The notes under the pieces are model-generated. The model was not told where the DNA came from and searched no databases. It was given only the letters and a program-made list of their open reading frames with translations. From Curvularia clavata (taxonomy: Eukaryota), in the NCBI GenBank assembly GCA_023920165.1, contig CP089280.1:1674001-1738000 (forward strand): DNA of 64,000 nucleotides. Direction: 5' to 3'. The translations under genes and the position numbers were made by a program. Below are positions 3,173-30,885 of this stretch, one piece after another; position 1 is the first letter of the stretch; each line of letters starts with the position of its first letter.

Positions 3173-3255
3173 TGACCTAACCAGGGGTCGAACCTGGAAT
3201 CTCTTGATATCGAATTCAATCGTAGTCAAGCGCCTTGCCATTGGGCCATTAGGCC
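3173..3255 (-). tRNA. tRNA-Arg(ACG) with 11-nt intron
   Basis: Reverse complement folds as a cloverleaf: acceptor GGCCTAA/TTAGGTC+A, anticodon stem CTTGA/TCAAG with loop CT-ACG-A, intron TTGAATTCGAT after position 37, T-arm CCAGG-TTCGACC-CCTGG, followed by a T-run terminator. Confidence 0.95.
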
Positions 3256-4475
3256 TATTTCTTGCTTCGATGATGAGATTGACTTTTGTATACAATATAT
3301 TGTCTGAAAAAAATTACACCCACACGCAACGACTGTATCTCTTCACTCTCAATGGCAAACCGTGAACGTGTCTTGCCCTCCCAGTAGGTCGAATTTTCCC
3401 CTCTGGTTGGAAAAAAAAAATCCAACACCCCACTAACGTGGTAGCGCGAGCAGCCCCTCCCAGCACAACCCCCCGGCTAATGACGACAACGGCGCTGATC
3501 GCGTGCCTCGCACGTGCAAGGCTTGTCTCCACTACGCGTTACGCATACGCATACCCGATATACACTTGTTGGACAGGGACAGACGAGCTCACACTTAGAG
3601 GAGGGGGTGGAAAAGTAGAACTGACATCATTGCATGGCTTGGTGCAAAGGGGAAGAGCAGGTATGCCGATGATACAACTCTCACACACTGGCTGCTGCTG
3701 CTGCTGCTTACATGTGATACCGACGGGGAACATGTCAAAAGTCGGTATCATGGTGTAGAGGTGTTTATGGCGATTCATCGACGTTCTATGTACATATGTG
3801 CAGAAAGAGAGAGCTGCATTGGGAGTGTATGCATGTTTGAGGCGTTGAAGCTGCATTGCATAGTATGGTATGGATGCGAGGAGTTGGAGGTGTTCGACAC
3901 GTGCTGGAGTCGGGCCGAAGGGAACGAAAAAAATTGGGGTCATGGATAGATGGATGGACATGCAAGTGGATGGGAAGGGTAGGGAGCACGTGATGAGGTG
4001 ATGTTGTATGGTGTGGTAGTACTGGAATTGGGCTGGCTTATTGTTTGGGCGTGGATGGATGGATGGATGTTGCAAGGTAGTGTTTTCTACCAGATGAGAG
4101 CAAGGAAAAGGACAGCGTATGGCAACCAAATTGTACGCACTGAATGTTTGCGCAACGCATTGCTCATCTCCAACAAACTGATGTCACAGTCGACGTTTCC
4201 TTGCATCAACCCCCAAAAGAGCACTCACGTGAGAACCAACATGCGCACATCCCACTACTTCGCGTATACCAATCAAACAACTCGGATTATAACTGCCCGT
4301 ACGAACCAACGTTACCAATCTATATTATACACGTCCCGAACGATAGCCCGTTTCCCCGTATAATCTACAGAAAAAACAGGGTAAACATGCATGTCCGAAA
4401 TGTGACCGGAAAACCCCCCAGCTTATCCCTTTCCCCCCCGTCGTCATCGGCCCTTTACGGAATCCACACCAGCAC

Positions 4476-7400
4476 CTATGCATAGCTTGCCCACCCCATG
4501 TATAGCACAGCCAGGTTACGTTCGTCGGTGGCTTGCTGAATGAGTTCATTGACGGTGGCTTTCGTGCTCAACGTCTTGCTCAGCTTCTTCTCCACCACAC
4601 TAAGCGCTCTACCCGCTTCACCAGCCTGGTCTTCCTTCTCTCGTTTCTTGTTGCTCTCATGCACGACACCTGCCGCCTCTTCAACGGCCGCTTGGCCAGA
4701 AGGAGCAGGGGTACCCGCCGGTGCGACGCTGGCTGAGCGTGCAGTACCGTTTGCACCGGCGGTTTCTTGGTTTGCTTCTTGCATACGTTTGGCCTTTGTC
4801 GGAGTGACGCTCCAGTTGACCAAGGGGTCATAGCGCAGAACATTGAGCAGAGTCATGATGCTCTCCCGCTCCTCCCGTAGCGTGTCCATGGTGAACTCGC
4901 AGCATCGTCGGAAGACGCCTTCCGTCTTGGTGTACCCCATGCCATCCACCAAGTCACGCGTCAATCGGAACGGGACCACTTCCGGTACGGGCAGAACCCG
5001 ACCGGCTTCAAAACTCACTCCCAGATCAATGTGCACGACTTCACCAGACTTCTCGTCAAGCAGGATATTATGACAGTGGCGGTCGCCTAGACCAAGTACA
5101 TGGCCAAGGATAGAAATGGCAGCTGTCGAGCGTGTATATGCCAGACGGCGTTCGAACCACTCGTCGGGATCTTCAAAGCGCTCGAGCAGGAAGTAGCGCA
5201 TCACAGGATGGAAATTTTCTGCAATCTTCTGCCATACCTTGACTCGTGTAGTGAGCGAGTCTTGTTGACACGCGCCGATCTCTTTACGACATCTGTCTGG
5301 CTTGTAGTCATTCGGATAGTACCTCTCATGAGCTGGCATGACCCACAGATGCAAGGGAACTGTGTTTTGCACAAACTCCATCAGACCGGAGCGAGTGGAC
5401 AGCGGTAGCACTTTGTAAGTGCGGATGCCAAGGTTCCGAACACGCGTAGCTGTGTGGTTCTTTAGCAGGCGTGAAACTTGGTCAAAGACCTGCTCCATGA
5501 TGGCGTCCTGACGTAGATCATCGTTTCCAGATTTGAACAATTGTTTGTACGGCCTGCCGTCTGTGCCTTTGGCAGTGATGATCTTGGGCGCACTGAGTCC
5601 GTTTGCGATGCTCATTGTCGATTTGAAACCGGCGATTCTTGGCAGATCGTTGTAGTTCATGTTTGGTCGGACTTCAATCTGGAGGGTGGCAGGTGGAACA
5701 TTGAGTTTAGGGACCTTGCTGACTAGGTCCTTGGACTCCTTGTACCTGTCGAGCTGCAACTCACGTCCTTGTTGAGTACTCTCCTTCTCACCCTTGAACA
5801 TGGCAAGATGGTGGTAGATTTCATTGGACTGGGAAATAGAACTCCAGTACGGCCGGGCTCTCTTATCACCGCTAAGTGCCGTAGCAAGAGCAGATGCAGC
5901 TTTCTGGCGTGACTTCGCAGACTCGTCTTTGGCTCGAACGACATCCTCCCTAGTGATGGCGCCCACTTTCATTTGTATCGCGAAGATTTGATGCATGCCA
6001 TGGTATGGATGCTCGACACATATACGAAACACGAGCTCCATCAGGAGGTGCTGAAATTCATTTTCCTCTGCTTGCAGTCGCGATGAGAGTTGGTTCATCA
6101 GCAGTGCAAACTTGCCGCTAGGGACGTCTTTGAGATATGTTTTCACGGCCTGGTTCGCTAGTGGAGTATCGCAGTACTCCAACCACAAGGAGAACACGCG
6201 GAGTGCGTCGTTGTTATACTCGTCGCAGGCGGACAGTGATAGAAGATAATTCTCCAGACACTGGCGTAAGAACTGCTCTCGACCTTTGCGCATTCGTTCG
6301 TACTCTGCGTTGTCCAGATCGTACCAATTTTTGGCGCGGCGGGCATTTCGGTAATAGGTCTCTCGCATCCCTCTGCTCTTGTCGGTCTTAGAGAGCTTGG
6401 TGAAGTCATGATATTCCTGCAGCTTGCGGTCCATCACTGTCTTGATCCGGTCCATGTCCTCAGCCGCTTCAGGGCTGAGAAGTTGTTTGTCGCAGAACAG
6501 CGCAAATTCGTGGAAAACTTGACCTGATCCTGAACCTTGCCGCTGACCCTTAAGTTCCCGGATTGCTGGTTCTAGGTATTCGCTCATAATTGTGTCTGGT
6601 TTTGCTAGGCGGGCTTCAGCGAGATGATGACCCTGACGTTGTTAGCGAAGTTAAACACCACCGGTTTGTAATACTTACGAGCCGAGCAAGCAACACTGGC
6701 AGGCTCAAATCGACGTTTTGGGAATCAAAGTCGGCATGATCGATTAAGTGTTGACGCATTCTGATGGAAATCTCGGTTTCACCCTGTTCCCAAAGAACAT
6801 TCGCTACCTCGTGTTGAGCGATAGCTTCAACGTCTAGACCTATAACCTTGCATTGTGGTACAATGTCGGAGAGATAGGTTACGCTTGCGAGAGATTCTTG
6901 AAGCGCGCCATGCTTCCTGCACATACTAGACGATGATACTAGGGCTTCTACTTCTATACCACGTATGGTTGCAGTTCTTGTATGCAGCGAGTTGACAAGA
7001 ACGGGACTAGAGCTGAGCACGCTAAACAACGTTTCGCGACAAGACAGAAGTTGGCGCACGTCGGCAAATCTAGCATGAATTAGTATTTGTTCTCTATAGC
7101 TGGTAAAGAAGACTTACTCGCCAGCCCGCATCCACTTCTCTCTCGACTTCATCCGGTCCCAGGTATCTAGCAGGTGTTCTGAGCGCTCAGCCGTGATGAC
7201 CTCTTCGGCTTCTGTGAGTACCCCCAGCGTGCGCAGGCGGATCTTAGTTGGCACAGAAGAGTTCTCCTTGCCAGAAAGGAAATTCATCGTCATCTGTAAC
7301 TGGTGACTGAAGTTTTCTTGAGCTTCTTCGACACTTTTCGCGTAATGCATTCCTTGAAATGCCTTGAATAGCGTACTTGCTTCTGTGTTGTTAGTATCAG

Positions 7401-13945: not shown

Positions 13946-16900
13946 ATGGCTGAAGAAGACAGCCTCGCCGCCCTCCAGGGCCTCCACCGCGACCTTTGCG
14001 CCCACATCGACCTGCAGCTGCCGGTGCTCGAACGACTGCTGCTGAACCTCGAAGCGCATTTGGAAGAGCTCAAGACACTGCTGGACAAGAAACCGAAGAA
14101 CGACAAGAGCAGACAGGCTCTGGCTTCCGGTAAGTCGCCTGCCAGGCCGTGTGCAGAGATGAGTGCTGACCGCGCCAGGCAAGATCACCATTGACGACAA
14201 CGAGTACGAGGTCAATGATGACTTCAAGCAACAGACGCTCGAACTCGCCGATGCCCTGGATCTCGATGAACTGGATGCCGCCGCTCTCTTCCTCGGTGCC
14301 CAAAGCGAAGCCCGCGAGCTAGACCGCTCCCAGCTGCAGACGGCCGTAATCCGCTTCCACCGCCGCCGCGAGTATGTCCTTTTGTGCGTGCGCATCCTGA
14401 TGAAGACGGCCCTAGACAGCGACGATGCTAAGGTGGAGGGCCTGCCCGTACTGCAGGAGGCTGTCCAGATGATTGTGGGTGTGCACGGCACAACAAACTT
14501 GGCCAACGCATTTGGTTTCTGGGCCAAGTGCTTGACAAGCATGGAGGCAGTAGAGAGGTGGCTGCAATTCATTGCCGAGCGTGTGCAGAGCACTCAGGTC
14601 GTGGGGCAGGTACCGCTGCCGGGCTTCGTGGAGATTATGGATTTCCAGCGCCAGAGTCTGACTAGACAGCACGAGAATCTGGCCGCCATTTGCACCCACA
14701 TGATCAAGCCTGGATACGTCAATCTCGACAACTACAAATCGCTGCTTGCACGCGCCAAGTCACTCGATCGCCATGACCTCAATACAATTCACTACGTCCC
14801 TATCCTTCTCCGACTGACATCCTGGGTCGCCTCCGACAGCAATAATGTCACATTGAGGGAAGCGCGCAACTTGCACGACTCGCTGATGAGCGGGCGTGAA
14901 AGTGACAACTGGTTACTGAGAAATCTCCACGCGGCGACTCTCACGTGGTGGCTGGCTGAGTACAGTGGACGCTACATGGACCCCAATACCCAAGACCCCG
15001 CATTGCAAGGCATCAACTTTGAAGAAGAGGCCAATTCGCGATCTGATGTCTTCCTCAAGGCTCTTGGTGATGGCGCATTCCACTTCATGCTTTCAGTCAG
15101 CCAGGATGTGCGCCCAACGCGCTGGTATGACCCCCAAAAGACGAGCATGTTGTCAACGCTCCTGCAAGACACAGCCGTTCTCAGCCGAGACTCGGTGCAA
15201 CCTGAAGACTTTTTCAAGGAGCTCCTCATGGAGCAGCTGCAAACTTTCGTTGATTCCTTCATCACGCACATGCCGGATACACTACGTAAGCTAAAAGCCG
15301 AGGAAGACGATCAGCGCCGACGACTGCAACTCCACTTCCAGCGGTCGACCGGAGAGTACCCTCTTCATCTGGAACGATTCATGGTCATTGTGGCCTACGC
15401 ATTCGATGGCTTTCCCGATGCCGCCGAAGATTTCTGGAGCGACAAGGAAAGCAATCTGTACGGATTCCTACAATGGGCGGCCAAACGTCAACCTACCCCA
15501 CGGATAGCCATGTTTTGCGAGATGCTCCGAGCCATTGGTACTGGAGAGACAAATGCCGAGGCCGCTCATCGCTTCCTGCTTGAAGAGGGCGCGTCTGCCT
15601 CTGGCAAGATCCGTCGAACGAGCTCGCTAAGTTATACGACCATTTTCAACGAATTGTGCGAGTTCGAAAAGGACATCCACGAGCCGAAGAAGGCCATCCA
15701 AGCCGGAGTCTTTGCTGCCGCAACGAATCCGATAGACCAGATTGTGGAGCCGGAGAGTGCAACTATGCTAGAAAGCTACTTCCGACTCATTTCGCACATA
15801 TGCCGACAAAGCCCCACCGCCCGAAACTGGATACTCGAAGTGAAGGAATATGATTTCGCCAACATCTGCTTCGGTCTCTGCACTGACAAAGTCGAAAGCG
15901 GATTGCGCGCAGCTGCTTTTGACGCGCTCTCCGCCTTGATGGTAGGCAAGGATGCTGCCAGAGCAAATGCAATGTGGACCATGCTTGATGACTGGACGGT
16001 AAACGGCTTTTATACCGGTTCCAAGCAGAATAACACGCTCGGCGCTGCACCGAGGGACGATCTATGGCCTACGCTTGCAGATGGATACGACGAGTCGATT
16101 GCCCTGGTTCGCTTTCTTCATGCGCTAGTGGAACCATACCCCGAGAACGAAGGCCTCAACGACAGCCTGCCGTTCCCTGAAGGCTTAGGCTCTACGCGTA
16201 GAATGCCTGGTATCGAGAGCTATATCGACTTCGTCATGCAACAAGTTTTTGCAGAACGCTCTTTGGATGTACTTGATCCTCTGCAACGCAACGTCATGCG
16301 ATGGACATGTCTGCGTTTCATGGTAATCTGTCTCTCGACATTCAATGAGAACCTCGTCGTCTTTGCGAACAAGTCGAGCATACCCGTTGACGACGTAATT
16401 GATCCTTCGTCCCTCGCCATCTATGTCACGCTCCACCCATTCGCGCGCGTCATGGAGTGGCTGTTCAACGACAAAGTCCTCAAGGCCCTTTTCGCCGCCT
16501 CTCACCACGACGTCACCGAGGTCGATGCTGCCCTTTCAGATTCGCCCTTGATCCAATCTCTCATGTTGAGTATAGAGGTGATGGATCTGGTGATGAAGCT
16601 CCAGGCCACGTATTTGGACATTGTCAGACCAGTCTTGAAGCAGCAAACCACTTTCCAGCATTACCCAGTGTCTAATCTGTCTCTAGCATCGTTCGAGGAC
16701 GCAATCCTAAACAACCTTCAAATTGTTGTTGACCTCGGTCTTTACTGCGGCACAGGTCACGAGGCCTTGACCATTGCATCCCTTCAACTACTTGAGAAGA
16801 TGGCTTCTTCCCGCAAACTTGCAGTATCACCTGCAGGCTTTGGACAGCGATCTGGCCGCAGCAAAATTGTCGGCATCTTGGAGAAGGACAACGAAGCTGA

Positions 16901-19052
16901 GCGCATTGGCCGATCTCTCTCGAGTTTGATGCGATTCAGCGCCGAAGAGCTTGAGGCTGGCGAAGAAGCCTCTGGATACGTTGTCAAGCTTCGCATACTA
17001 GACTTCCTCAACAGCTGTCTGGCTGCTGTATCTCTCCGCCCGACCATTGCTCACATTCTTCTTGGTTTCTCTTGCGGAACAAACACTGTGCGAATTGCCG
17101 ACGACAGTCTGTGGTCCAATGGACAGGCCTTATTCCACAGCATTCTTCTCCTTGGCGTCGAATATCCTGATAACGATGGAGAACAATTCTTGGCCTGGAG
17201 ATCTGCAATCAAAACGCGGTGTTGGCAAGTGCTTCAGAAGTTGTGGCGCTCGCCACTGACCAGTGCGATAATCATGGAGGAGCTGCGTGACAATGAGTTA
17301 CTGTTCATTGAAGCGCCCCAACTTACCCCCATCACCCTCGACATACCCTGGGATGGAATGTCTCTAGCTCAAGGGCTCGAAGTCAACCCTAGCGACTATT
17401 CGGCATTCTTCTCGGGGCCACCGGCACTCGCCCTCCAGAATTTTCTCCAACGACGGGCCGCTTTTCTAGACTATGAGTCAAGGGAACTTCGTTTGACTGT
17501 CAAAGAAAACAGACCAACGATGAAATCGAGGATCCAGTCACTGCTTCTTGGCACTACCATAAGACCTGGCGAAGACGCTACGCCAAATCCCAACATTTTT
17601 GACTTGTTCGACTTCATAGAGTTGGTCTACCCAGAACGCGCTCTTCCAGATCAACACAGGTTCTTTGAAGGCGTGAATCTTGAATCATGTCAAGAAGACA
17701 AGGAGGGCTGTACTCTGTACTCGATACCATTGCTAGAACAAGTCATCCGCTTGAAGTTGAAGTACTGGAGAAAAGATGGCTTGCTGAAGGAGGAGGAGCA
17801 CGAAATAGCGCTCGCGGAACAGGCTGAGCTCTTGATGGCCATATTCGTGGACTGGAACCGTCGTACTCAGCTGATGCGCTACCATAAGGACATCCTTCAG
17901 TCATGGGTCCAGGTTGTGATGGTAGCCGTGCACAACTGCGATTTTGACAACGGGGCACGAAGCTCCTTCATCCTACAGACCTTGCAAGTCATTCTTCCGA
18001 AGCTTGAACAGTCATATGCCGCGGATATATTCACCGCTCTACAACTCGCCAGCCTCGCAGAGTCTCTCATTCAGAAAGTTGACTTTGAGTCTACAGCCTT
18101 CGACAAAACTGGTGACTTTGCCAATGACCGACTATCGCAGCTCTTCCGTGCTGCACTCCTGGGCATCTACAGCCCAGTTTCTACACCTGAACTGCGGGAG
18201 TACTGCTACCAGATTTGCTTCCGTTACATACATGGTACTTCCCAAAAGGCTACTCCAAACTCTGTTCTTGGCCGCCACACACTCAACGCGATCAGGAACT
18301 GCGGTAGCCATATGCTCGAAGTGATTTGCGACGATGCTTACAGCGGCCAAGGAACATGCAAGGTTTCCGCGCTCCTTCTTCTCAATGCATTCGTAGCAGT
18401 TGCAACTCGCCAGTCGTCAAAGTACATTCTCGAAAGCTTTGTTTCTCTCAACTTTGTCGGTGTACTTGTCGACAACATCAAGCACATTCCAGAGGAACTC
18501 CGCACAGCTATCGCATCGCAAGTGACCGTTCTCCTCTCATACTACGACGCTAGCCTTGCGCTCCTTCTCCGTATATGTCAGTCTCGTCTGGGAGCAGCGC
18601 ACGTGCTCAATGCAGGCCTCTTCCCAGCTATCCGCGAGTCTCATATCTTCTCCGTCGATCCAGACATTGGTCTCGAATTCGACGACCCAAATGCTTTACG
18701 CAAGTACTACCAGCTTATGTTGGCCGTACTACGTGTTATCAACGCTGCGGTTATCGCCAGGGGACGGCAAAATGATCAGACTGTGTTCCAGGCAAGGGAG
18801 TTCCTGAAGGACAACAGACACAGCATGGTCAGCGTCTTCAAGAGAAGTGTCAACGTCGGAGTCGGAGCAGGCGAAGAGATGCAACAGGACCTGGTAGACT
18901 TGGTGGATTGCTGGACGGTGTTGGTTGACGTGACTGGGTTCTTGCAGGTAAGCCATCGACATGACGGTGAAATTGTTCGACATGGAACTAATGTATTGCA
19001 GTACGAAGATGAGTCTAGTTTGAAGAGGGCGAGGCCGAGCATGTTCTCATAA
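13946..19052 (+). CDS. NUP192: Nucleoporin Nup192/Nup205 family
   Basis: ATG 13946 (MAEEDSLAALQGLHRDL), intron ~14130-14178, then a long helical ORF with YEVNDDFKQQTLELADALDLDELDAA and TLHPFARVMEWLFN, typical of fungal Nup192. A final short intron precedes YEDESSLKRARPSMFS*. Confidence 0.9.
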
Positions 19053-19786
19053 GCAGTACGCTTAATGAATGCTGCTATCTGGAGGATGAAATGATCATTT
19101 ATGCGCTTGATGGGAATATTTTGTTATGTAATGTGTAGAGAAAGCCGCTTTAAAAGCTTGTTCAACTTGGCCACCTTGCATTTCCTCCTATAATACGATG
19201 CTGAGCATTAAGTGTCCATGTGATATTGCTATGATTTCAAGAAAGACCACGCAAACAGGTGTTAGGAAAGATGCATATGCAAGGGAAATGCATGTCCAAC
19301 TCGTCTACTGACTGCGTGGCGCTCGGAAGAGCGCGCATCATTGTTACTCTTCGGATTGTCTCACCACCGTTTATATCCATTTCCCTAAGTCCCTATCCTT
19401 GTTGTTTACATGTTTAAAGAAAGCTAAAGAAGGGAGTTTCAATTGGACTTTCGAGTCCATGCAGTTGCCAGAGACGTAGTAGAGTTGGGAAAGTTAGTCG
19501 TGGTGCGACTATAAAATGTATATGATGAAGAGCTTGCTATTGATACTAAGTTGGAACAAAATTAATGACTACAAGTTCTTCAGGGCGGTACATTTCTGCA
19601 CGAGCAAAGAGAACGTGCGTGGACGCTTAGCACAAGTGTGATGCATGTGAGGAGTATCAAACGATTAACGAAAATGGGTATCGATACTGATGATGTACAA
19701 CTGTAGAAATTAAAAGAGACTGTGGTGTTACAGTGGTACTTTGTGGACAACCCCCATAGGACCTTGGTTTTTATAGCCACTGCCTC

Positions 19787-21668
19787 TTACCCGTCTTCAT
19801 CTTCGTTCCTCCATATTGATGCCGAATTATAATCAGAGGATTGCACTAAATCCACTAGATCGTTATGGATCTCCTCATTGCTCTGAGAAGACTGAGTGAT
19901 GTCGGTAATCTTTACTGGGGAGCTGACTGGTTCGGCAGAAGAGCTAGGGGCTTCGTCATTGAAGACATCAGATCTACGCTTCAAAGGGGAACCTTGTGGG
20001 CTTGATCCAGATTCGACACGAGCCCTCTTTTTCGCTAATGAACCTTTTGGACGGCCTCTCGGTCGCTTTAGTATAGCATTGTCATCGCGCGCTGGAGAAA
20101 TAGGATCTGTGTTTGACCTTGGAGGAGTGCTCAAGCTACTCTTTAACGAGCCACCAATTGGTTTAGCCCAGTCGAGAATTTGTCTGATCTTCCGACTAGG
20201 CTGATCAACGGTGGTGGAGGGACTCGGGTTCAAAGTTTCTATGATAGCTGCCTGTGTGGCTTCAAATACCATAACCTCATCATCAAACTCGGTCGCTTGT
20301 TCTTCAGGCAAAGATTTTGGGTCTTCCTTTGGTTTCATGAGACCCTTGCGATGCAGGATTTGTCTAGGGCCAGATCCCTCTGCTTGACCTGATCTGTCGG
20401 CGTCGTCACTGCTCTTCCTCTTTCCAGGCCTTTTTGGAAAATCACCACTTTCCACTCTGGCGCGCAGCTCGTCCGTAGAAGGAAATGCTCTGGTGGCGGC
20501 CCACTCAGGGAGCTTGCTAGCGAAATTTTTCCACATTGCACGTTGTGACACTGCGATTGGTGCAGGACACTTGTAAAAATCCGTCCGATGATTCGCATTA
20601 TCCAAACCAGCTTCTATGCAGTTCAGGCAACGAAAGAGGGTCTTGTCATATCGATTTGGGCACTGTGAAGTTGCTCCTGGACCTGGATGCTTTTGGGCAC
20701 AAACGATGCATGGCCAACTCTCTTCTTTAGATAAGTTGGCGTTGGGGCACTTTGTGTATTCTAGCGTGTGATCCGGACGACCACATCTTAGGCAGAACTG
20801 AGGCGTGCCTCGAGGGTCGTACGCCCTAGACTCAGTCAGTATGCCAGTTGTGTGTGTGTGTGTGTGTGTGTGTGTCAGGCTAGACTCACATTGCTAATGC
20901 ATGGTCGCCCGAAAAGAAAAGAGGCTGCTGACAGGCCTTCATAGCCTCACCAGGGTCCATAAATCCCCACAAGAACCTCTGTTGTGTGTACTTGACCTCG
21001 TTGATATCGAGGCCAGTATCACGCTTCATCGAAGCAAGGTAGTCCTTGCAGTTCTTAAGGTACTCATTGGCCAAATTGTATTCGTTTAGTATAACCCAAT
21101 ACATTTCGGGCTTGCGTTTTGAGTGCCATGGTGTAAGGCCGAGCTTTACCATCAAAGTAGCAAAATTGTTGTCTTGAATCAGTTGCTCATAGATCGGGCG
21201 CGACTGGGTAGTAAGATGCAGTTCTTTCGTGTGATGATACACTCGGACGGATGTTATCTGGTTATATGGTTCGCTCAGCGATCTCAACCTCTTCAGAACT
21301 CCTTCAGGTCCTAAATCCGAAATTTTAGGAAAGTCCTTCTCACCAAGTACGATGCTGATCCTGGGAAGAATGGCTTTCAGTGCGCGGGTTGGTGCCGGGT
21401 TCGGGTCGCGTTCTAGGCTTTTGGAGATTTTCTTTAATCGATTTACTTCTTCAGTCATGGTGTTCATAGCTTTGTTGAGCTGAGCTGCAATTGCGGCTGA
21501 TAGCTCTTTCAGCTTCGCCTCGATTACTCGCTCGACTGCTTGTTCCAAACCCTGTTGGACAAGAATCTCTGGGTGTAATGCGTTTCCAACATGTTGTTGG
21601 GAACAGGTATTCGGGGTTTAGTCTGCGGTGTGGCTTGTAGAAGCGGAAGATTTGTCTGGGAGATTCAT
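19787..21668 (-). CDS. Spliced LINE ORF1/gag-like protein: coiled coil, three CCHC-type zinc knuckles, AT-hook; in-frame TAA at codon 17 if ATG 21668 is used, alternative ATG 21467
   Basis: ORF 21548-20886 joins the downstream frame through intron 20889-20826 (GTGAGT...ACTGAC...CTAG). This gives AMAYDPRGTPQF-CLRCGRPDHTLEYTKC...CIVCAQKHPGPGATSQC...CLNCIEAGLDNANHRTDFYKCP, in frame with ORF 20605-19787, which contains KRPRGRPKGS. Confidence 0.8.
20849..20875. repeat. (GT)n microsatellite inside the intron of the gag-like gene
   Basis: Uninterrupted TG dinucleotide run. Confidence 0.95.
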
Positions 21669-23165
21669 CTTGCCTACAAAGTTGAAAGTTGAAGACTTCT
21701 CAAAAATAAGAGAGTTTTGAGGATGAATTTTGTGGTGTTCGTGCTGTCGGACCTTAAAGAATTGTGAGGACTGCTTCCTGGCGATAATCAGTGAATTGCG
21801 GATCGAGTAACAGCAGCTGGAATTATATCTAACTTATATTGCAATGGCATCCATCACGATAATGACTATGCCTTCACCTCTGTGGCGCAATTTCTTCCAC
21901 CTAGATAGGTAAAGCATTGATGGAAGACTTTTCAGCGCTGTGCCCATCTCGTATTGTTGGTGGGGAGGGCGGCCCGTAAGAATCAGATCTCAATCCAACT
22001 CTAGGAAGCAATCATTGGACCCATCTTTACCCCTAGTAATCCAATTTTACCATCCTAGAGGCTATAATTATAGCGCTCGAAACTTATCTATGTCTCTCTG
22101 GATGTACATGATGCTATGCGAAATCATTTCGTGGTGAAGGTCACCATCTGCGTCCTAACAGAGCAATACCCAATACTTGCCCCAATAAACTCTAATCGCT
22201 TCCCAAACTATGAAGTTATCAGAACCTTGTTTTTTTCTTTTGACTCGGGGTTGAGCATTGTTGATCAATATCAGCGTACATAGCAATCCGCGGAAAGCTG
22301 ATAGGTGCCCCTATTAACATCTCATATCCTTGCATGTTTACTACTCCTGTATCGGAGGAGGTGATCTGGCAGTTCCGTGCGCCACAGAGATTTCATGGCG
22401 CTCCATCACCAGGGTTCATCGCCTATGTTGTTTGATTCGCTGCCAAAGCTTAATTTCGCTTGGTCACAATCCCTCGCCACCACTCACGAAAAAGCTGTCC
22501 ATGGGGTACTGACTCACCTAACTATCGTGTGAGTTCAAACGCTGTAAAATGTCTACGAAGACTCATGTCAGATGCCTCTAGGAGATGATTATCACAATAG
22601 TAAGAAAAAAAAATGAGTATGGGTAGAGTGATACAGTCTCGAGTGTTTGCAATGGCCTCTGGTTTCCCGTTGGGAATGTGTTTAAAGTTTCAAGATTCGT
22701 ATGTAGTACGTATCTAGCTTGGCTTGGCCTGGCTTGATCCCCACATCACACGACTTGCCTTGATAATCTTGACCTGGCCTAGTCATTGATAGGCCGGGCT
22801 TTCGGATGTTACCTATCATTCATTGTTTCTTCCGCAACGCCTCTTTTAACTTTGATATATGCCTGCAAAACACCACGTGCAGTTTGGACATGGAGTTTGT
22901 AAAAGGTCTGAGGCCATCTAGCTTCCAATTCTGGCGGGTGGGTGATCAGTCATTGTTGAGTAAAGGTGCCAGTCAATTTGTATCTAATCCTTGTCGTTTA
23001 TACGTGATTTGCCAAACCCACCACGTATCTGTTACGAAAAAGGGGGATCAATTGAGGCTAACAAGCCGTGAATCAGACGTTCAACTCCGTGCTGTGCATA
23101 TGCTCATTGCCTTGCGGAATTGACTTAAAAGCTGCGGTTTCCCACTTCACAGCTTCTCTTGTTTC

Positions 23166-23357
23166 ATGTCACATAATTCATTCGCATACGGGCCCATCCA
23201 GCGATTTCTGACCAGCATGACAGAGACTTCACAACAGCAAACACGAGAGAAAGAATATACTTGCAACAAGGGGAAGGGACCCAGCAGCAACAGCAATGAT
23301 AAGGGAAAAACGAAGAAGAAGAAGAAGAAGAAGAAGAAGAAGAAGAAGAAGAAGAAG

Positions 23358-23388
<31 letters not shown>

Positions 23389-26300
23389 CTCGGGTGAGCT
23401 GAGGCTGCTGTCTCATCCTAACGTATGTGGGTTGACTGATGTTTGTTTAGAAGCCAGAGCCCCTCGCAAAGGTCAGTATTTGCTACAATCCAGCTTTCTC
23501 TGTTGAATGATTAATAGAAAATTGACCCAGGGCAATCTCAAGTTCATGCGAAACCAGTTGACTCTGAAAAACGCAAACTTGGGCCGGGACGAAAATGGCT
23601 AGCTGATTTGCAGCCAGGTCACTCCCTGAAGACAGAGGTTCTAGAGGACGGACAATGCTTTCTCGTATCGGTCCAAATGAGATCTGCCAAACCGCGCCTC
23701 CAAAGCCTCTTCAACTGGGTAAAGACACTGTCTAGACCGCCCGATGTTATCGCCATCCAGGATCCTCCTTTGCAGCTCGCTTATAGCTCCTTGCCATCGT
23801 ACCAGACATGGTTTCGCGGAGACGACGGCGAAGGTAATCCTGTTAGCATCGGAGAGAAAGATCACCCTTATCACTGCGACTATATTCCCCCGTACCCGAA
23901 AGCTCATGAAAAGCTGGCTATGAAGCAGCACTCTAAGACCCAGCCGGACGGGTGTAAGCAGCTGGCCAAAATTGCGTTTTTGGTGCATAGTTCCATCCAG
24001 GAATGGAATGTTTCTGAGCCTTCGCACGGCCCCAATCGAGGCTTGGTCGCAACATTGCATATTGCCCTCGCCCGAGGTTCACTCAACATCCACAACTTCT
24101 ACAATCACAATCACCCAAATGGGCGGCTAGACGTCGAGGAACTTTTGAAGCCCTGCGGCAACAATCAAGATGCCCATATAGTCGTTGGTGACAGCAACCT
24201 ACAACACCCTCTCTGGAGTCCTCACGCCGAAGGACAGAATGCTCATAAAAAGGCCAAAGATCTCGTAGCAGCAATGGAGGCCACGAATATGGTATGCAAG
24301 AACGATGGCTCCCTTACCTTCGCTCGTGGCAATCGCAGCGGTGGTGAATATGCATCTTCGATCGACATCATCTTGGCAAGCGGGTTCCTGGGTGACCAAT
24401 CCTGCTACGAAGTCCTCGATGTCCACGGGTACGAAAGCGACCATGCTGTCACTTCGTTGAAAGTCGACATGGATCTAGACCGCAAAATGGGCCTAAAGTT
24501 CTTCTGGGATGAGACTAATGAAGCATTGTATAGCAGAGATGTGGCTCACCATGTCAATACGTTGGCTCTTCCCTCAAATCCCAACAGGGCCGACTTAACG
24601 CACGCGCTGGAGGGTTTTCGAAAGATCATCTATGGAGCAATCGAGAAACATGTACCCGTCCGGCATGTTTTCGAAAACACTCATGCCAAAAAGTCTACTA
24701 TGTCTATCTCTAGCGCCATAAGGACGGCAAATTGGCGGAGGGCTGTAGAGCGCAAATCGGAGGACCCTCAAGGCGTTCATTCTTTAGCTAAAAGAGCTAT
24801 CCTATGGGGCTCGCCAAGACCGCCAAAATGTACTCCGGATTTTGTACCAGCTCCAGACAAAGTAATCACGGACAACAACGAGAAGGTGAAATGTTACGTG
24901 GAGGCGATTTGGACTCGCACCAGGTACAAAGGCCCCCCCAGAAAACTGCCAACCGATAGCGCCTTTTCAAAAAGATATGTAAGTACACTCAGGCACCGTT
25001 AATTCAATATTTGGTGTCACTGCCAGCTGAATGAAAACAGGCTACGGTTGACAGTAGCGGGACGACTCACACAGCCCAAACGCATACTTCCTCCACGGAT
25101 ACATCTCAATTTCCGTTGCCGTTTCTTCATCCATCTAGGAAACAGCATTTCTCTGATATAAAAGTAGAAGAGGGCGAGGTCGCAAGCCTACTGAAAGGCG
25201 CACCACATCGCAAGGCTTGTGGAGATGATGGTATTCCGTTTGAAGCATTGAAAATGTGTGCCAAGGTCATAATACCTACCCTGACTTGGATCTTTCAAAC
25301 GTGCCTTGATCTGCGCTTACATCCCGACAGTTTCAAGGACTGCATTACCTTCGTCATCCAAAAGCCTGGAAAGGATGCATCACTGCCTAAATCTTACAGG
25401 CCGATCGCGGTTCTGAACACACTGGCAAAACTTCTGGAGCGTATAATAGCTGATCGATTAAAGGCACTTGTTCTTGAAGTGGAAGGTATGCTTCCGTTCA
25501 CACAGTTTGGTGCACCAGGTCGTAGTACGACTCTTGCTGTAGAGTTGTTGACTACGAAAGTTTACAGCGGGTGGATACAAGACAAGAAGGCCAGTCTCCT
25601 TGGTCTCGATCTCACTGGTGCGTATGATCACATCGACCGTATAAAATTACTAGATAAACTAATATCGCTTGGCATACCTGACTGGCTGATCGAGATTATA
25701 TGGTCTTTTTTGTCTAATCGCCGCAGCTATATTCACCTTCCTGGTTACGACGGTGAGGAGTACTATATAGACGTTGGCGTTCCTCAGGGGAGTCCACTCT
25801 CTTCGCTCCTGTTCTTGTTCTATGCGGCGCCCCTGCTGGAGCACTTGGCTAAGGACTATGCTGCCGCAACGCTCTTTTCTTACGTTGATGATACCTATAT
25901 CCTCGTAGTCACGTACTCATACCGCGAAAACATCCGCGTTATGGGTGTCATCCACGACCGGCTTTACAACTGGGCAGAGCAGAACGGCATGCGCTTTTCA
26001 CCCACCAAGTATCATATCATGCACTTTGTTAAGCCGTGCACGCGTGTTGACGAAGCTGGTTGCGAGTTACTGCCTTCTATGATTGGTTTCGAGAATTTGA
26101 CTCAAGACGAAAAAGATAACATTCTACAACCGACCATGACTATCCTTGGAGTAGTGTTCGACCAACGACTCTCTTGGGTTGATCATGCAAACTATGTAAG
26201 CCGCAAACCATACCACCCATCATTTACTTACGTATCAACAGATTGTAGGGAAGATTAGGAAGAAGCTGAAGACCTATCAACGCTTTTCTCGGTCAACATG

Positions 26301-27342
26301 GGGCATCACAGTACAAAAACGATACAACCTTTATCATCAACACCTCCTTCCGATCGTTACCTACGCATGCGCCGGCTGGTTTCTCACTGATCCACCGAAC
26401 GAAAAGCGTCATGGGAAACTGAGTTATGGAATTTCCAAATCCGCCATCGATACTCTGGAATCCCTCCAAACAGAGATCCTTCTTTTCCTCTCGAAAGCTT
26501 GGAAACGAACCCCTAGGCAATTAATTGAGAACGAAATGCACATCAGACCGATTGTCTTGAAGCTACATGAGGTCGCAATGAATCACCGTTGCAGAAAACT
26601 GGACTCAAACGAGCATGAGTTTATGCGAAAGACTAGAGGTTTTTGCGAAGTAAAAGGACAAAGAAAGCACCCTCATGACCAAATGGACCGGGTGGTAAGG
26701 AATTATGTGCGCCAAATCTGGGATTACAAGTCGCTTCATTTCGGAGAGGCAGACTGTGAGCGATGTTGGGCAAAACCAGCAACGCGGAAAAAGTGGATCA
26801 AAGATTTCTTCGACCTCGAGCTCTTCGTGGAAGCCAAGGCACAGTTCACCTTCTGGTTACATGTTCAAGCAATCCCGCGTTCAGCAGTTTGGAAGTTCGC
26901 ACAGCCAGCATACCAAGCCAATTACGGCGAGCATACTTTGCATCTGTATTTTGGTTTGGATACCGCCCAGCAAACAATGCTTTTGGGTATGCGCACTGGG
27001 AATCTCGGTGTCAATGCTAATCCAGTCTTCCGCAACGCCATAAAAAGCAAGAACATGAGCTGCCCAAAGTGCGGAGCAACTCTCCATACTGTCAAACATC
27101 TCTTATGCGAGTGTCCGGCTCTAAGCAGGGCGAGGACATATTTGACGGGAGCCGCTGGACACAACGATTTCAACTTGTTCATGAATCGCGATACTGAGCT
27201 CGCGACATCATGGGCCATTGCGCACTTTGGTCTGTCGCAGTTCGATTCGGTCAAGAACAAAAAGAAATACCAATTTCCTCAAAAGCCAAAGGTTGTGCGT
27301 GACGGGATTTTACTAGATGAGAGACAAGGACTCGCCACGTAG
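23166..27342 (+). CDS. Five-exon non-LTR-type APE endonuclease-reverse transcriptase-CCHC protein (~1321 aa)
   Basis: Exons 23166-23393, 23451-23471, 23518-24978, 25041-26195 and 26242-27342. All four introns are GT-AG and phase 0, and splicing gives one open frame. APE motifs DVIAIQDP, HNFYN, VVGDSNLQHPLW, SSIDII, ESDH; RT motifs YRPIAVLNTLAKLLE, LDLTGAYD, GVPQGSPLS, YVDD; thumb STWG...LY...PIVTYACAGW; C-terminal CPKCGATLHTVKHLLCECP. Confidence 0.92.
23313..23387 (+). repeat. (AAG)25 trinucleotide repeat encoding poly-lysine in exon 1 of the RT gene
   Basis: 75 nt of perfect AAG in frame with ATG 23166, ending two codons before donor GTGAGC at 23394. Confidence 0.9.
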
Positions 27343-27636
27343 CATTAATACTATCCTGTTGTCATATCCGGCTTCGGCCTTTTGCGAAACATTTTGAGAA
27401 ACACTTTGGGTTTCATTTTTTATATTTGAATCAAACTTAACGAATACAGTTCGTAAGTATGCTAAGGTAGGTGTTTTTCGAACCGTTTAATGGCTGACTG
27501 CTGTTAGAGACCCAGCCTCCGCAACGCTACATCGGTAAGGAGACGTCTGGTAAGTGAATCGTACCCAGCTGGTCTATAAGGTATACAAGGGAAGACTAAC
27601 GACTATGCAGTCCGTCGTACCCTGCGATTTTATCAG

Positions 27637-28366
27637 TTAACAGGAATTGAAAGGCATGTCGTCCAACCTCTCCCTTACGTCCACCATCTCAACATCCTCC
27701 ATCTCCATGTCGCCGTCCCCATCCACGTCACCATCGTCGTCGCCATCGCCGTCCATGTCTACCTCCGCGTCCGTGTCCGTGTCGTCGTCCGACCGGCGTA
27801 GTCTCGACCGGATGAAATAGAGCGTTGCACCCATCCAAGCCACGCTTTTGTATGTTGATACTTTATCGATTCCACTGAAATATGCAAATATTGACTACTG
27901 CAGCGGATGCCATAACGCTGCCTCCATGTCCATGCACCCATCTGCGATAGCCTTCCTGATCTCATGGGTGTTGTATCCCAGCCATAACCAAACGTCCGGA
28001 GCAGGCAGCCTTGCCGTGTTCTTCTCAATCAACCGGTAGCTGAAGTCGTAAATTCGTAAGAATCATAGCTAAGAACTAGGGTCTATCAAGTATAATAATG
28101 AGATTGATAGTTGATGCGTCTTGCCTATTGATGAGCGCGATCTCCCGGCCTCGCGACTGTCGCAGCTGTATTATATCCACCTGGCATGTATGGCATAGAA
28201 TATAGTCGTCATTGTCGGGCATAGTCGTATCCAGAAAGTTGAGCCATTCAAAGAGCCACTTCTGTAGCTCTGTAGCAACTTTACTTGAGAGCGGCTCATA
28301 GAGAGCAGGCCGGGCGTCCAAAGAGAGAGTGACGGGGACTACCCGTTGTCCGGAGAGATTGGACAT
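27637..28366 (-). pseudogene. Possible degenerate small gene of unknown function
   Basis: Protein-like stretches MSNLSGQRVVPVTLSLD...QKWLFEWLNFL and YRLIEKNTARLPAPDVWLWLGY...HPLQ*SIFAYF...WMGATLYFIRSRL with an acidic tail. They are broken by stops and a frame change, and I found no clean splice solution. Confidence 0.3.
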
Positions 28367-29403
28367 GGTTGGTGTGTAGGATTCCTTTACATTTGTGCAC
28401 TTGTTAACGATTCTAACTTCAGATCTGAATTTGAAGAAGACTGAAGAAAGAGATGGGATGAGCTGAGTGTGCGATGCCGTCGATGGATTTTGCCGAGCTG
28501 GAGATTGAGTGTAAGGGTTATTTTCTGTAGGATCGCTAAGAGTGCTGACTTTCAAAGTCACAAGAGCAGAAGAGCAGGTATTTGTAGGCAGTGTGCGCTG
28601 CTCTGATGCTATGGTAAAGGATCACCAATTTGCTTTTGCACCAACCATTTACTTACAATGAATAGTGTCCTCATCACAACCACGGTTCGACAACTTCAGG
28701 GTTTTCTCTGCCCGTTGTTGGCCGCCCAATGGGCTTCTGCCCATTGGAGTGTAAGTTCATTTATTATTTGTCAACCCACCGATGAAGTGCATACTTATAT
28801 TGTCCAGTATTGTTGTTGTTCTGATTTGGATCTGTACCACATTTTGGATTCGACACGTGAAGCCGAAGGCACTGGAGCCTGAGGCACGGGAGCTTGAGTA
28901 AGTATCCGAAACTCTAGACAGCCTCCCCTATTCATACTGAGATCTATACAGGGCCTCGCGTTCGAATCCCCCCTTGGACATAGTCCTTTTTTGAATTTTT
29001 GAATTTTGGTGGGCTGAGGGGCGGCCTGCCTTTGTTTTGAGACCACTTTTTGATGTTGGCCAATCGCCACAGGCGAGCCAGTTATGAGAAACAAAAACAG
29101 AAATAAATAACCACGGGCCCCTCCCGTGAAAAGAAAACTCCTCACCTCTTCCCTATGCAGTTTCATGCGTGAAATGTTGATGCCTATGCCAAGCCACAGT
29201 GTACCATGGATAGCTTTACTAGTACCCCGCCTGGTCAATATGTGGCCCCAGCATCATCATAAATACTCTCTTCCTGTATTGTCTTCGGCCCATCACTATG
29301 ATACTCACGACTTTAATTCAAATCCGGACAATCCTATCGAGCCATTGAGATCTTCCTAGTTCAACCGGCAATCCTTCGAGGACGCTGCACACCTTCACCG
29401 AGC

Positions 29404-30885
29404 ATGTCGCCATTATTTCGACTACCACGAGAGCTACGAGATATCATTTACGACTTCTATATCCGCTGTGACGGCGGCTACGTGTATAACGCAGAGACCC
29501 AAAAATTCAGGAGGGCTGATGGGGATCCGATTTCCTGTGCACTAGCCCTCACCTGTCGACAAGCTGCGTCTGAGCTGGAAGGACTGGCTTTTCAAGTGAA
29601 CCCAATCACATTCTCGTCTACTCCTATTAGCTCTTTGCGTGAGCAGGTGGCGCTACATCATGAAGTAGCTTGCGCATTCGCCGAAAATGGTTATTTTTTG
29701 ATCTCTCAAACAGGCCGCTTTTTGGTGACGCAAGAGATGCGTGAACGAGTAGCAGAGGCCTATCCCCAATTCGCACCATACCTCGAGATTTGGTTGAAAG
29801 AAAGGGTCCTCGGAGACCGTTGGGGTTGGGAATGGGACTATACTGTTGGTGAAGCTCGATCTATCTGGTGCGATTTTCAGCGGTTCCTAGCGCAGCTTAT
29901 CTCAAGGCACCCAGCCTTGCACGAGACGATCAAGGCTTTACCCGCAAACTCAGGCATTTATATGCCTTCTGTCGATTTGCTACAACGTGATGATATAAAC
30001 TTCGAGCCCTGGCGCATCTACGACAAAACCGAGCTTGAGCGTTTGTCAAACATGCTGTCTTTCTGCCCAATACCCTGGGGTCGGATTCATCCTGAAACGA
30101 AGCTCACATATTCCGCTGCTTCAACAGCTCTTCAGTTTCTCAATAAATGCACCAGGAAGGTCCGAAAACATATTCGCAAAATCATTTTGATCGAGAACAA
30201 GGTTTTAACTGGGAGGTCCGAGAGCTATGGCCGTGGCTTTATACCATTTTGTCGGGAAAACAGATGTCTACATGTGGAACGCCGGGTAAACCTCTGGAGA
30301 ACGGTATTCGGACCTACTTCTGGAGACCAGGCTACTTATACCTTTGGCTGGACTGAGTGGGACGCTAGGCAATTCAAGAACGAACGTCTACGGGCTAGAG
30401 ATGTCACACGGTCAGTTGGAAAATGGATGACTGAGGCTTTGGCATTACCTTCGCTAGGAATGCCCGAGGAATCGTACACCCTTGTCTTCGATGGCAATCC
30501 AGTACCGGAACTGTCTTCGAAGGTCTTCCGCATAATCCAGCGGGATGCCGCCTGGCAAGCTGCGCTTGACGCCTGTTATTCTCGCGGTTTGTTTCCAGAG
30601 GTTTCTTGGCAAATCGGCCGTCGGCAAAACAAGTGCTACCAATTTGAGGGATTACCGGAAGTAATGCAGATGCTCCTGACCGGCAGTAGCTCTCTAATCC
30701 AATGCAATTTTGATCTCGGTGCACCATACGACGTCGAACAGATTCTTGAAGACCATCGCGGTTGGGATTGGGCAACATGGTCTGAATCATGGTCATCACA
30801 CGAGCCGAGCACTTTCCAAACGGAACCGCCATTGCCGCCATGGCATAAGTGGTGTTGGAAGCAATATTACGGTTATTATGATTAG
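29404..30885 (+). CDS. Intronless fungal hypothetical protein with an N-terminal F-box-like motif
   Basis: 493-aa ORF starting MSPLFRLPRELRDIIYDFY, followed by ALALTCRQ. This pattern is typical of expanded ascomycete-specific families; function unknown. Confidence 0.8.
   Translation: MSPLFRLPRELRDIIYDFYIRCDGGYVYNAETQKFRRADGDPISCALALTCRQAASELEGLAFQVNPITFSSTPISSLREQVALHHEVACAFAENGYFLISQTGRFLVTQEMRERVAEAYPQFAPYLEIWLKERVLGDRWGWEWDYTVGEARSIWCDFQRFLAQLISRHPALHETIKALPANSGIYMPSVDLLQRDDINFEPWRIYDKTELERLSNMLSFCPIPWGRIHPETKLTYSAASTALQFLNKCTRKVRKHIRKIILIENKVLTGRSESYGRGFIPFCRENRCLHVERRVNLWRTVFGPTSGDQATYTFGWTEWDARQFKNERLRARDVTRSVGKWMTEALALPSLGMPEESYTLVFDGNPVPELSSKVFRIIQRDAAWQAALDACYSRGLFPEVSWQIGRRQNKCYQFEGLPEVMQMLLTGSSSLIQCNFDLGAPYDVEQILEDHRGWDWATWSESWSSHEPSTFQTEPPLPPWHKWCWKQYYGYYD

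Follow-up and report, generated by a model that had tools for sequence, protein, structure and literature searches.

A putatively LINE-derived, head-to-head pair of gag-like and endonuclease–reverse transcriptase genes in Curvularia clavata and related Pleosporales

Long interspersed nuclear elements (LINEs) are defined by one RNA that codes for both ORF1p and ORF2p and is then copied by them (cis preference). In the Tad1 clade, the reverse transcriptase (RT) is typically followed by RNase H. Here we describe a locus of Curvularia clavata at which a gag-like gene, putatively related to LINE open reading frame 1 (ORF1), lies on the minus strand and head to head with a LINE ORF2-like endonuclease (EN)–RT gene on the plus strand. 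The analysed stretch, called the window throughout, comprises 64,000 nt of the 2.9-Mb contig CP089280.1 (positions 1,674,001 to 1,738,000). It is from C. clavata, with the spliced minus-strand product 100% identical to the annotated protein yc1106_09114 (P0001, 535 aa).

Domesticated retroelement genes include L1TD1 (from L1 ORF1), the gag-derived PEG10 and Arc, and the rvt reverse-transcriptase genes, fungal and other. Like the pair described here, they are intron-bearing, expressed retroelement coding sequences, present once in each genome at a stable locus. These cases keep one protein, whereas here an ORF1-like and an EN–RT gene stand side by side with the RT motifs intact. The Drosophila elements HeT-A, TART and TAHRE use LINE gag and RT proteins in a host function, sometimes supplied in trans. 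However, they are multi-copy, transposing elements with tandem ORFs at chromosome ends, while the pair is internal, next to Nup192, apparently present once, and divergent. Twin-primed, 5'-inverted L1 copies resemble the pair in that the 5' part of a LINE is head to head with its 3' part, but they are dead, unique events, and the layout of the pair is conserved, intron-bearing and transcribed. In a full-text literature search, seen as titles and the openings of abstracts, neither a fungal case nor a divergent ORF1/ORF2 pair was described.

An ordinary LINE, which we take to be of the Tad1 type, was found in our metagenome scan (L012). This frame-broken, Tad1-like element (positions 1007-6132 of a 49-kb metagenome contig) carries ORF1, EN, RT and RNase H, and its ORF1, with three zinc knuckles, stands in tandem on the same strand. 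The RT protein of the window has the same order of EN, RT and C-terminal knuckle. The gag-like protein shares the order of RNA recognition motif (RRM)-like domains and knuckles, and the first two Cys-His spacings are equal (4 and 3). In contrast to L012, the window has its ORF1-like gene on the opposite strand, separately transcribed. Both genes contain spliceosomal introns and, where checking was possible, were each seen once, and the pair is syntenic. The gag-like knuckles also have longer His-Cys spacers than those of L012, and the protein ends in a long disordered tail.

We interpret the pair as a LINE-derived two-gene module that is resident in Pleosporales and maintained at the host level, a reading that we consider probable. 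It is favoured because there is one record per species or strain, the neighbourhood is shared, the sense introns are kept and the tree follows the taxa. The initial annotation of the locus had missed the spliceosomal introns in both genes, the single occurrence of each gene where checkable, and the fixed Pleosporaceae neighbourhood. These features point away from an ordinary mobile LINE and towards a module that is resident and kept by the host. In such a module, an ORF1p-like protein would be partnered by an ORF2-like EN–RT with intact polymerase motifs. The former would consist of a helix, two RRM-like domains and three zinc knuckles, followed by a disordered tail that is possibly directed at chromatin. 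Both genes would be driven from the intervening spacer, possibly by the shared divergent promoter that the initial annotation proposed. The two proteins, made from separate mRNAs, would act together in trans on RNA, as LINE ORF1p and ORF2p do in cis, and host-level selection, not transposition, would keep both genes open.

Layout, assembly integrity and transcription of the pair

The gene order along the window is Nup192 (plus strand, 13946-19049), the gag-like gene (minus), a spacer and the EN–RT gene (plus, 23166–27342). The head-to-head arrangement, proposed in the initial annotation, is real and also occurs in metagenome loci. All start codons named there exist, namely 21668 and 21467 in the gag-like frame and 23166 for RT, and the ATGs at 21668 and 23166 are 1,497 nt apart. 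The absence of a bicistronic LINE mRNA was likewise confirmed: the genes are on opposite strands, therefore one such mRNA cannot encode both, and the gag-like and RT genes are covered by separate RNA contigs, those of RT being without plus-strand introns. Sequencing run X17 was read as RNA, on the grounds that its contigs end in adapter and contain spliced junctions and that its depth falls to zero over 19203-19603 and 22010-23212. Over the latter interval, contig depth in run X9 was 0.55-1.26. Between the two coding regions, the following features were delimited:

21669..21892, minus strand: transcribed leader of the gag-like gene, minimum extent (RNA contigs X17 21230-21740 and X9 21593-21892; the start site is not derivable from contigs)
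21893..23165, no strand: spacer, presumed site of the promoter(s), without any family-matching ORF

Of the k-mers of 8 to 11 bases, none occurred in at least three of the four spacers compared (window, L002, L005 and L006), with no excess over shuffled sequences. Rfam matched twice over 19000-29500, both times at chance level in the (GAA)n run described below.

The layout was recovered in an independent short-read assembly, X3, which carries another organism label and whose status as DNA is a guess. One X3 contig spans 20885-27396 and another 18000-20841, and the sole break is a masked (CA)n repeat. Word depth, which is not a copy number, was flat (116-121) through both genes and the spacer. 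No second X3 contig of at least 88% likeness was found over the gene pair, while 27.4-29.1 kb drew 2-6 contigs. Neither gene has a second copy within the 64-kb window (tblastn, blastn), and protein clusters hold a single record per species or strain. Evidence on copy number and synteny consists of proxies, such as contig counts and the order of accessions or locus tags.

Head-to-head LINE halves can also arise when the 5' part of a dead element is inverted once, for example by twin priming, or through an assembly inversion, in which case the ORF1 end and the ORF2 start would mark the ends of the inversion. We regard such an event as extremely improbable. Introns and RNA were found in both genes, and the layout is common to lineages whose RT domains are only 55-76% identical. 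An assembly inversion is ruled out by X3 and five metagenome contigs with the same layout, and the same contigs exclude a one-off inversion. Misassembly, or tandem homologues marking a one-off inversion of a dead element, had been raised initially as ways in which the layout might prove spurious; instead, the layout recurs.

The gag-like gene and its relation to ORF1

The gag-like gene was modelled as 605 codons, running from 21668 to 20890 and, after a 64-nt intron, from 20825 to 19787:

20890..21668, minus strand: exon 1, N-terminal helix and two RRM-like domains (predicted)
20826..20889, minus strand: intron, 64 nt (GTGAGT…ACTGAC…TAG, fungal-type spliceosomal signals), containing a (CA)n run
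19787..20825, minus strand: exon 2, three CCHC knuckles and disordered tail (KRPRGRPKGS, acidic end); stop TAA at 19787-19789

The NCBI model P0001 crosses the 64-nt intron and joins GDHALAM to AYDPRG. An X17 RNA contig covers 19918-20824 of exon 2; intron removal is not directly visible in RNA, as the (CA)n repeat is masked. The truncated family models P0002 and P0004 stop at the exon 1 boundary of the window, and P0003 goes 14 residues beyond it. Relative to the family profile, the window, L005, L006/L009 and L002/L010 all have this exon break at position 258.

An in-frame TAA at codon 17 (21618-21620) is present in this assembly only; it may be a nonsense variant specific to the strain, or else an error of the assembly. 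Because X3, X9 and X17 read CAA at this codon, the true start is probably 21668, and the annotation of 21458 as the start is probably a consequence of the TAA variant.

In the 605-codon model, the three knuckles lie at residues 271, 299 and 326, with exactly the spacings first reported (CX2CX4HX6C, CX2CX3HX8C and CX2CX9HX6C). All three are retained in Bipolaris maydis P0017, and across the wider family the knuckle count ranges from 0 to 3. A structure model of P0001, built from a 16-row family alignment, had a predicted local distance difference test (pLDDT) score above 90 at residues 30-190 and below 50 from residue 321 (disordered), and it also predicts an N-terminal helix. When the two halves of the confident region were compared with RRMs in a VIA fold comparison, Z was 8.2 and 7.4. 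The best Foldseek matches were tandem-RRM proteins, with E about 1e-3. The RRM-type domains are thus a fold-level match, with putative RNA binding, and the modelled build is helix, RRM-like, RRM-like, three knuckles, tail. Pfam gave sub-threshold matches or nothing on the gag-like exons and no family for P0001 at E up to 10. A PDB sequence search with the gag-like protein reached E about 1 at best, and a word-based protein search with the knuckle region returned only the self-match.

The tail motif KRPRGRPKGS is presumably AT-hook-like. The tails of the family members P0005, P0010 and P0012 differ, yet GRP-type basic motifs recur in them (KRGPGRPKG, KRGPGRPPK). The Lophiotrema family member is a chromo-domain protein by its UniRef name, a hint that the family's tails may be directed at chromatin; Pfam gave no match at E 0.01.

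Does the gag-like gene derive from an ORF1? The triple-knuckle ORF1 identity initially given to it holds for the domain order of a helix, two RRM-like domains and three knuckles, and it is weakened by the profile comparison and the lack of a Pfam family. Domain order and knuckle count equal those of the L012 ORF1, whose knuckles read CX2CX4HX4C, CX2CX3HX4C and CX2CX3HX6C. BLASTP between the two proteins gave a colinear match over the second RRM-like domain and the knuckles (E 1e-4 in a single comparison, 22% over 134 aa). Among the structure neighbours in the atlas were an X-element ORF1 cluster and the RNA-binding domains of ZCCHC3, with low template modelling (TM) scores. Comparison of profile and structure with ORF1p, as suggested in the initial annotation, returned the RRM folds and no clear ORF1p relationship: L1 ORF1p was absent from the top 50 fold matches, which were generic RRMs.

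The gag-like protein could instead be an unrelated host RRM–zinc-knuckle protein that is a conserved neighbour of a LINE-derived RT, co-regulated with it or merely syntenic. The empty Pfam and PDB searches, the low hhalign probability, the family profile that misses the L012 ORF1, and the generic nature of the fold matches all speak for this explanation, as do five gag-like-bearing taxa (Lophiotrema, Kalmusia, Ascochyta, Cucurbitaria and A. ethzedia) without a same-species RT among the 77 listed (551-2000 aa only). Against it stand the domain order and knuckle count shared with a tandem ORF1, the colinear BLASTP match and the structure neighbours named above. Moreover, the gag-like gene travels with RT outside the Nup192 neighbourhood, in the Pyrenophora-like L002/L010 and the Parastagonospora-like L005. 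We judge an unrelated neighbour to be unlikely. Descent of the gag-like gene from ORF1 is likely but unproven.

The endonuclease–reverse transcriptase gene

The exons and introns of the EN–RT gene are as follows:

23166..23393, plus strand: candidate first coding exon (MSHNSF…), with a lysine run from (AAG)n at 23307-23390; splice form absent from RNA contigs
23394..23530, plus strand: 5' intron region, modelled as 23394-23517 (124 nt, GTGAGC…TAG) or as 23472-23530 (59 nt, GTCAGT…CAG), fitting RNA contigs
23531..24978, plus strand: exon with the apurinic-type endonuclease (Pfam Exo_endo_phos_2, 3.4e-12); covered by RNA contigs
24979..25040, plus strand: intron, 62 nt (GTAAGT…CAG), holding the stop that ends the EN frame; removed in X17, retained in X9 contig 22
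25041..26195, plus strand: exon with the reverse-transcriptase domain (YVDD; Pfam RVT_1, 5.9e-31)
25266-25330, plus strand: optional intron, 65 nt, skipped in X17 (canonical placement)
26196..26241, plus strand: intron, 46 nt (GTAAGC…CAG), removed in X17 and X9
26242..27366, plus strand: last exon, with a thumb-like region and a C-terminal CX2C…HX4C knuckle; stop at 27340-27342 and a short 3' untranslated region; colinear with orthologues

One 3,783-nt X17 contig joins 23529-24978, 25041-25263, 25329-26195 and 26242-27366, after which come six non-templated A's and adapter. A single RT frame is restored once 24979-25040 and 26196-26241 are removed. Without splicing, the gene reads in three separate frames, and there is no visible A-tail, as would be expected if a decayed LINE copy lay by chance upstream of an unrelated host gene in this strain. 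A decayed LINE is ruled out, however, as the breaks are spliceosomal introns removed in RNA. The pair was also found in two further genera and in three distinct metagenome sequences, so that chance adjacency, excluded by RNA splicing and recurrence, is given next to no credence here.

The 65 nt at 25266-25330 encode VIIPTLTWIFQTCLDLRLHPD (21 residues), which is present in 7/8 aligned relatives; the low-quality model P0023 is without part of VIIPTLTWIFQTCLDLRLHPD. Loss of these 65 nt disrupts the RT frame. At the 5' end, both the X17 and the X9 pieces start at 23529, and X17 has 92 further, unlisted letters. The 5' intron 23472-23530 was deduced from where these pieces start, the repeat at 23301-23394 being masked, and is therefore a candidate. 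This repeat is a (GAA/AAG)n run of ~28 units, which reads as poly-Lys in the frame of ATG 23166 and as poly-Glu in the frame of the RNA-contig splice form; it is shorter by 54 nt in X3.

A 1,314-aa ORF opens from the ATG at 23166 when 23394-23517 and the two frame-restoring introns are removed and the 65 nt are kept. The RT start that was first proposed is thus present, but it opens the full ORF only with the 124-nt intron removed. The N-terminus of this ORF is colinear with Alternaria dauci P0022, being K-rich and then followed by EN. A complete RT protein can be encoded, though the RNA contigs seen do not encode it. Because these contigs show two splice choices by which the 1,314-aa frame is disrupted, full-length RT output may be limited by splicing; isoform proportions are not derivable from contigs.

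Exo_endo_phos_2 was also found by Pfam in all four RT orthologues scanned. The polymerase motif is YVDD in the window and in six non-Bipolaris relatives, and FVDD in two B. maydis models (alignment). GD.N (GDSN in the window) and SDH are retained in the aligned relatives covering them. In 9/9 aligned RT relatives QD replaces QE, and both the window and A. dauci have another residue in place of the first Asn; we take QE and the endonuclease residues to have their usual roles. Since QE reads QD and this Asn is lost, the endonuclease activity of the predicted EN domain is uncertain. The C-terminal knuckle CPKCGATLHTVKHLLCECP aligns with the C…C…H…C columns of the six relatives that reach the C-terminus, and its match to Pfam zf-RVT has an E of only 0.49. 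Pfam gave no RNase H hit in the last RT exon of the window or in P0021, P0022, P0025 and P0029, unlike L012 and more distant RT relatives, in which this domain is present.

Recurrence, phylogeny and the downstream segment

A library-wide HMMER search with gag-like exon 1 (E up to 0.001) returned 15 proteins. Ten were looked up: nine are Pleosporales hypothetical proteins in clusters of 1-3, and one is an unrelated leucine-rich-repeat protein. The other five are unnamed or 'hypothetical' metagenome records. RT-domain identity to the window was 76% in B. maydis, 68% in A. dauci, 59% in Parastagonospora nodorum, 55% in Pyrenophora teres and 35-45% in Fusarium.

Gene order was read from accessions and locus tags. 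In B. maydis, Nup192 (KAJ6206999) is followed by a Zn2Cys6 factor (KAJ6207000), gag-like (KAJ6207001) and RT (KAJ6207002). In A. dauci, RT (ACET3X_004654) and gag-like (ACET3X_004655) are adjacent, and in Alternaria sp. BMP 0032 gag-like (J4E80_001117) lies three tags from Nup192 (J4E80_001114). The interval between Nup192 and gag-like in the window (19052-19787) is just 735 bp, and the 64 kb hold no trace of the Zn2Cys6 gene that B. maydis has between the two. A Zn2Cys6 transcription-factor gene adjoins Nup192 in B. maydis and Alternaria.

A metagenome scan with a five-row RT alignment gave 12 loci, corresponding to five distinct sequences. Gag-like was found upstream of RT on the opposite strand in L002, L005, L006, L009 and L010 (tblastn, family hidden Markov model (HMM)), with spacers of about 0.9-1.6 kb. 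The recurrence that the initial annotation proposed to check was therefore found in 5/6 metagenome loci in which 2.8 kb or more lie upstream of the RT match (3/4 distinct sequences), and the pair is also adjacent in B. maydis and A. dauci. In the sixth locus, L007, a minus-strand ORF running off the contig end resembles the family N-terminus by eye, without significance. L001, L003, L004 and L008 have too little upstream sequence to judge the layout. The fifth distinct sequence (L011/L012) has 25% identity and encodes an endonuclease, an RT and an RNase H; L012 served as an internal control for the tandem layout. No Pfam family was found for the ORFs on either side of L005 and L009. An RT intron gap of 43-44 nt near P0022 residues 920-929 in L001, L003 and L008 matches the 46-nt intron of the window.

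In a quick maximum likelihood tree (32 rows, 325 columns, LG+G4, Shimodaira–Hasegawa-like approximate likelihood ratio test (SH-aLRT) without bootstraps), the pair-linked and Pleosporales RTs formed one clade (13 of the 32 rows, SH-aLRT 99). Inside it were A. dauci, the window with B. maydis (95) and P. teres with L001 (100), and a second group joined P. nodorum with L005. RT relatives from Fusarium and Trichoderma fell outside. The internal order presumably agrees with family-level taxonomy. The ratio of non-synonymous to synonymous rates (dN/dS) was 0.35 for L004 vs L008 (92% identity, 290 codons, EN region), with 1.04 and 1.43 in the wrong frames; these two metagenome loci are the only pair close enough for this measure. 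Together with the intact ORFs, this one pair suggests purifying selection on the RT protein.

Several observations weigh against a host-kept, LINE-derived module. The X17 RNA isoform does not encode the full RT protein. The hhalign probability of gag-like vs the L012 ORF1 was 16% (E 0.0016), and the family HMM had no match to that ORF1 at E 0.01. Variants shown among close Curvularia runs are mostly non-synonymous (6 to 3 in RT, 4 plus the stop to 1 in gag-like), counts that leave aside 78 further variants among these runs. Gag-like identity to B. maydis is 40-44%, vs 76% for the RT domain; the comparison figure for Nup192 is 94%, from a cluster representative of B. oryzae. No P. teres or P. 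nodorum gag-like protein was among the 15 matches, and by locus tags RT is far from Nup192 in both species, so the locus appears to have moved at least once. B. maydis and A. dauci are known from neighbouring numbers only, not orientation. The standing of X3, set out above, belongs here as well, and so does L005, in which an intron-less RT gene (intact 1,223-aa ORF) lies beside a gag-like gene that retains its break. This combination has the look of a retro-copy from RT-sense RNA.

Relocation of the locus and the missing RT introns of L005 fit a mobile retroelement of very low copy number whose ORF1 is normally antisense, kept open by selection on the element and held at one copy because repeat-induced point mutation destroys its duplicates. 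In favour of such an element are also the intact RT motifs, the endonuclease motifs, most of which are intact, and the dN/dS of 0.35. The absence of RT near Nup192 in P. teres and P. nodorum fits mobility, and L005 looks as if derived from spliced RT-sense RNA, from which an antisense intron is unspliceable. However, there is one record per species or strain and a single X3 contig, and Curvularia and Bipolaris share the neighbourhood, with gag-like three tags from Nup192 in an Alternaria. Sense introns of RT are kept in the window, L001/L003, L006 and L008, although copying via spliced RNA would remove them, and the tree follows the expected genus order. The DNA after the RT gene has no A-run in the window, L003, L005, L006 or L008. 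We consider a mobile element a minority possibility that still carries some weight.

Further points on this question come from the sequence just downstream of the RT gene:

27367..27452, plus strand: motif block with the GGCTTCGGCC hairpin, two T-run-G-N-GAAAC motifs, and acceptor-like and GTAAGT donor signals

Downstream of the RT stop, five lineages have, by eye, comparable features in a comparable order (window 27343-27452, L005 7670-7810, L006 8403-8530, L008 3203-3350 and L003 3545-3720): a short GC hairpin, T-run-G-N-GAAAC, a branch/acceptor-like site, and a donor that reads GTAAGT or GTGAGT. Of the five, only the window, L005 and L006 matched the strict GAAAC-type pattern, and the cUUCGg hairpin loop was seen in 3/5. 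The block has no Rfam match. Its position is that of LINE 3' recognition signals, which would favour mobility. The X17 RNA ends at 27366, and six X3 contigs of a multi-copy family start at the next base, 27367.

Five plus-strand GT..AG introns follow (27453-27507, 27850-27903, 28056-28110, 28613-28664 and 28898-28951). RNA contigs from X9, X17 or X20 lack three of these introns, and all five are joined out in several X3 contigs, which have genome-like depth and bear C>T and G>A changes. If X3 is DNA, the sister genome holds intron-less copies of the 27367-29100 segment, and reverse transcription of spliced RNA would give exactly such copies; these transition-rich copies also count for the mobile element. 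With two of the introns out, a continuous 206-aa minus-strand ORF appears (MSNLSG…PFNSC). It has no recognisable relatives, the downstream ORFs have no Pfam family, and an atlas search gave no usable match.

A bolder reading is that the pair is a working, host-resident reverse-transcription machine whose proteins act in trans, their substrate being a separate RNA with its start at the hairpin at 27367. Copying through spliced plus-strand RNA would then spread the segment and rebuild the antisense 206-aa ORF, which, with its plus-strand introns, would be a natural counterpart of the antisense-intron retrotransposition reporter. We regard this as a long shot.

The resident, host-kept module remains the reading that we prefer. 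Here the two protein types of a LINE are encoded apart from each other, on opposite strands, an arrangement shared by several Pleosporales lineages. Should the pair be maintained by host selection, it would be the first LINE kept as a complete ORF1-like plus EN–RT module within the titles and abstract openings that our literature search covered, and it would offer a tractable fungal system for the role of a cellular LINE-type reverse transcriptase. If it is still mobile, it would represent an undescribed LINE layout, in which an antisense ORF1 can keep its intron through retrotransposition. Either way, it becomes testable whether ORF1p-like and ORF2p-like proteins cooperate when made in trans.

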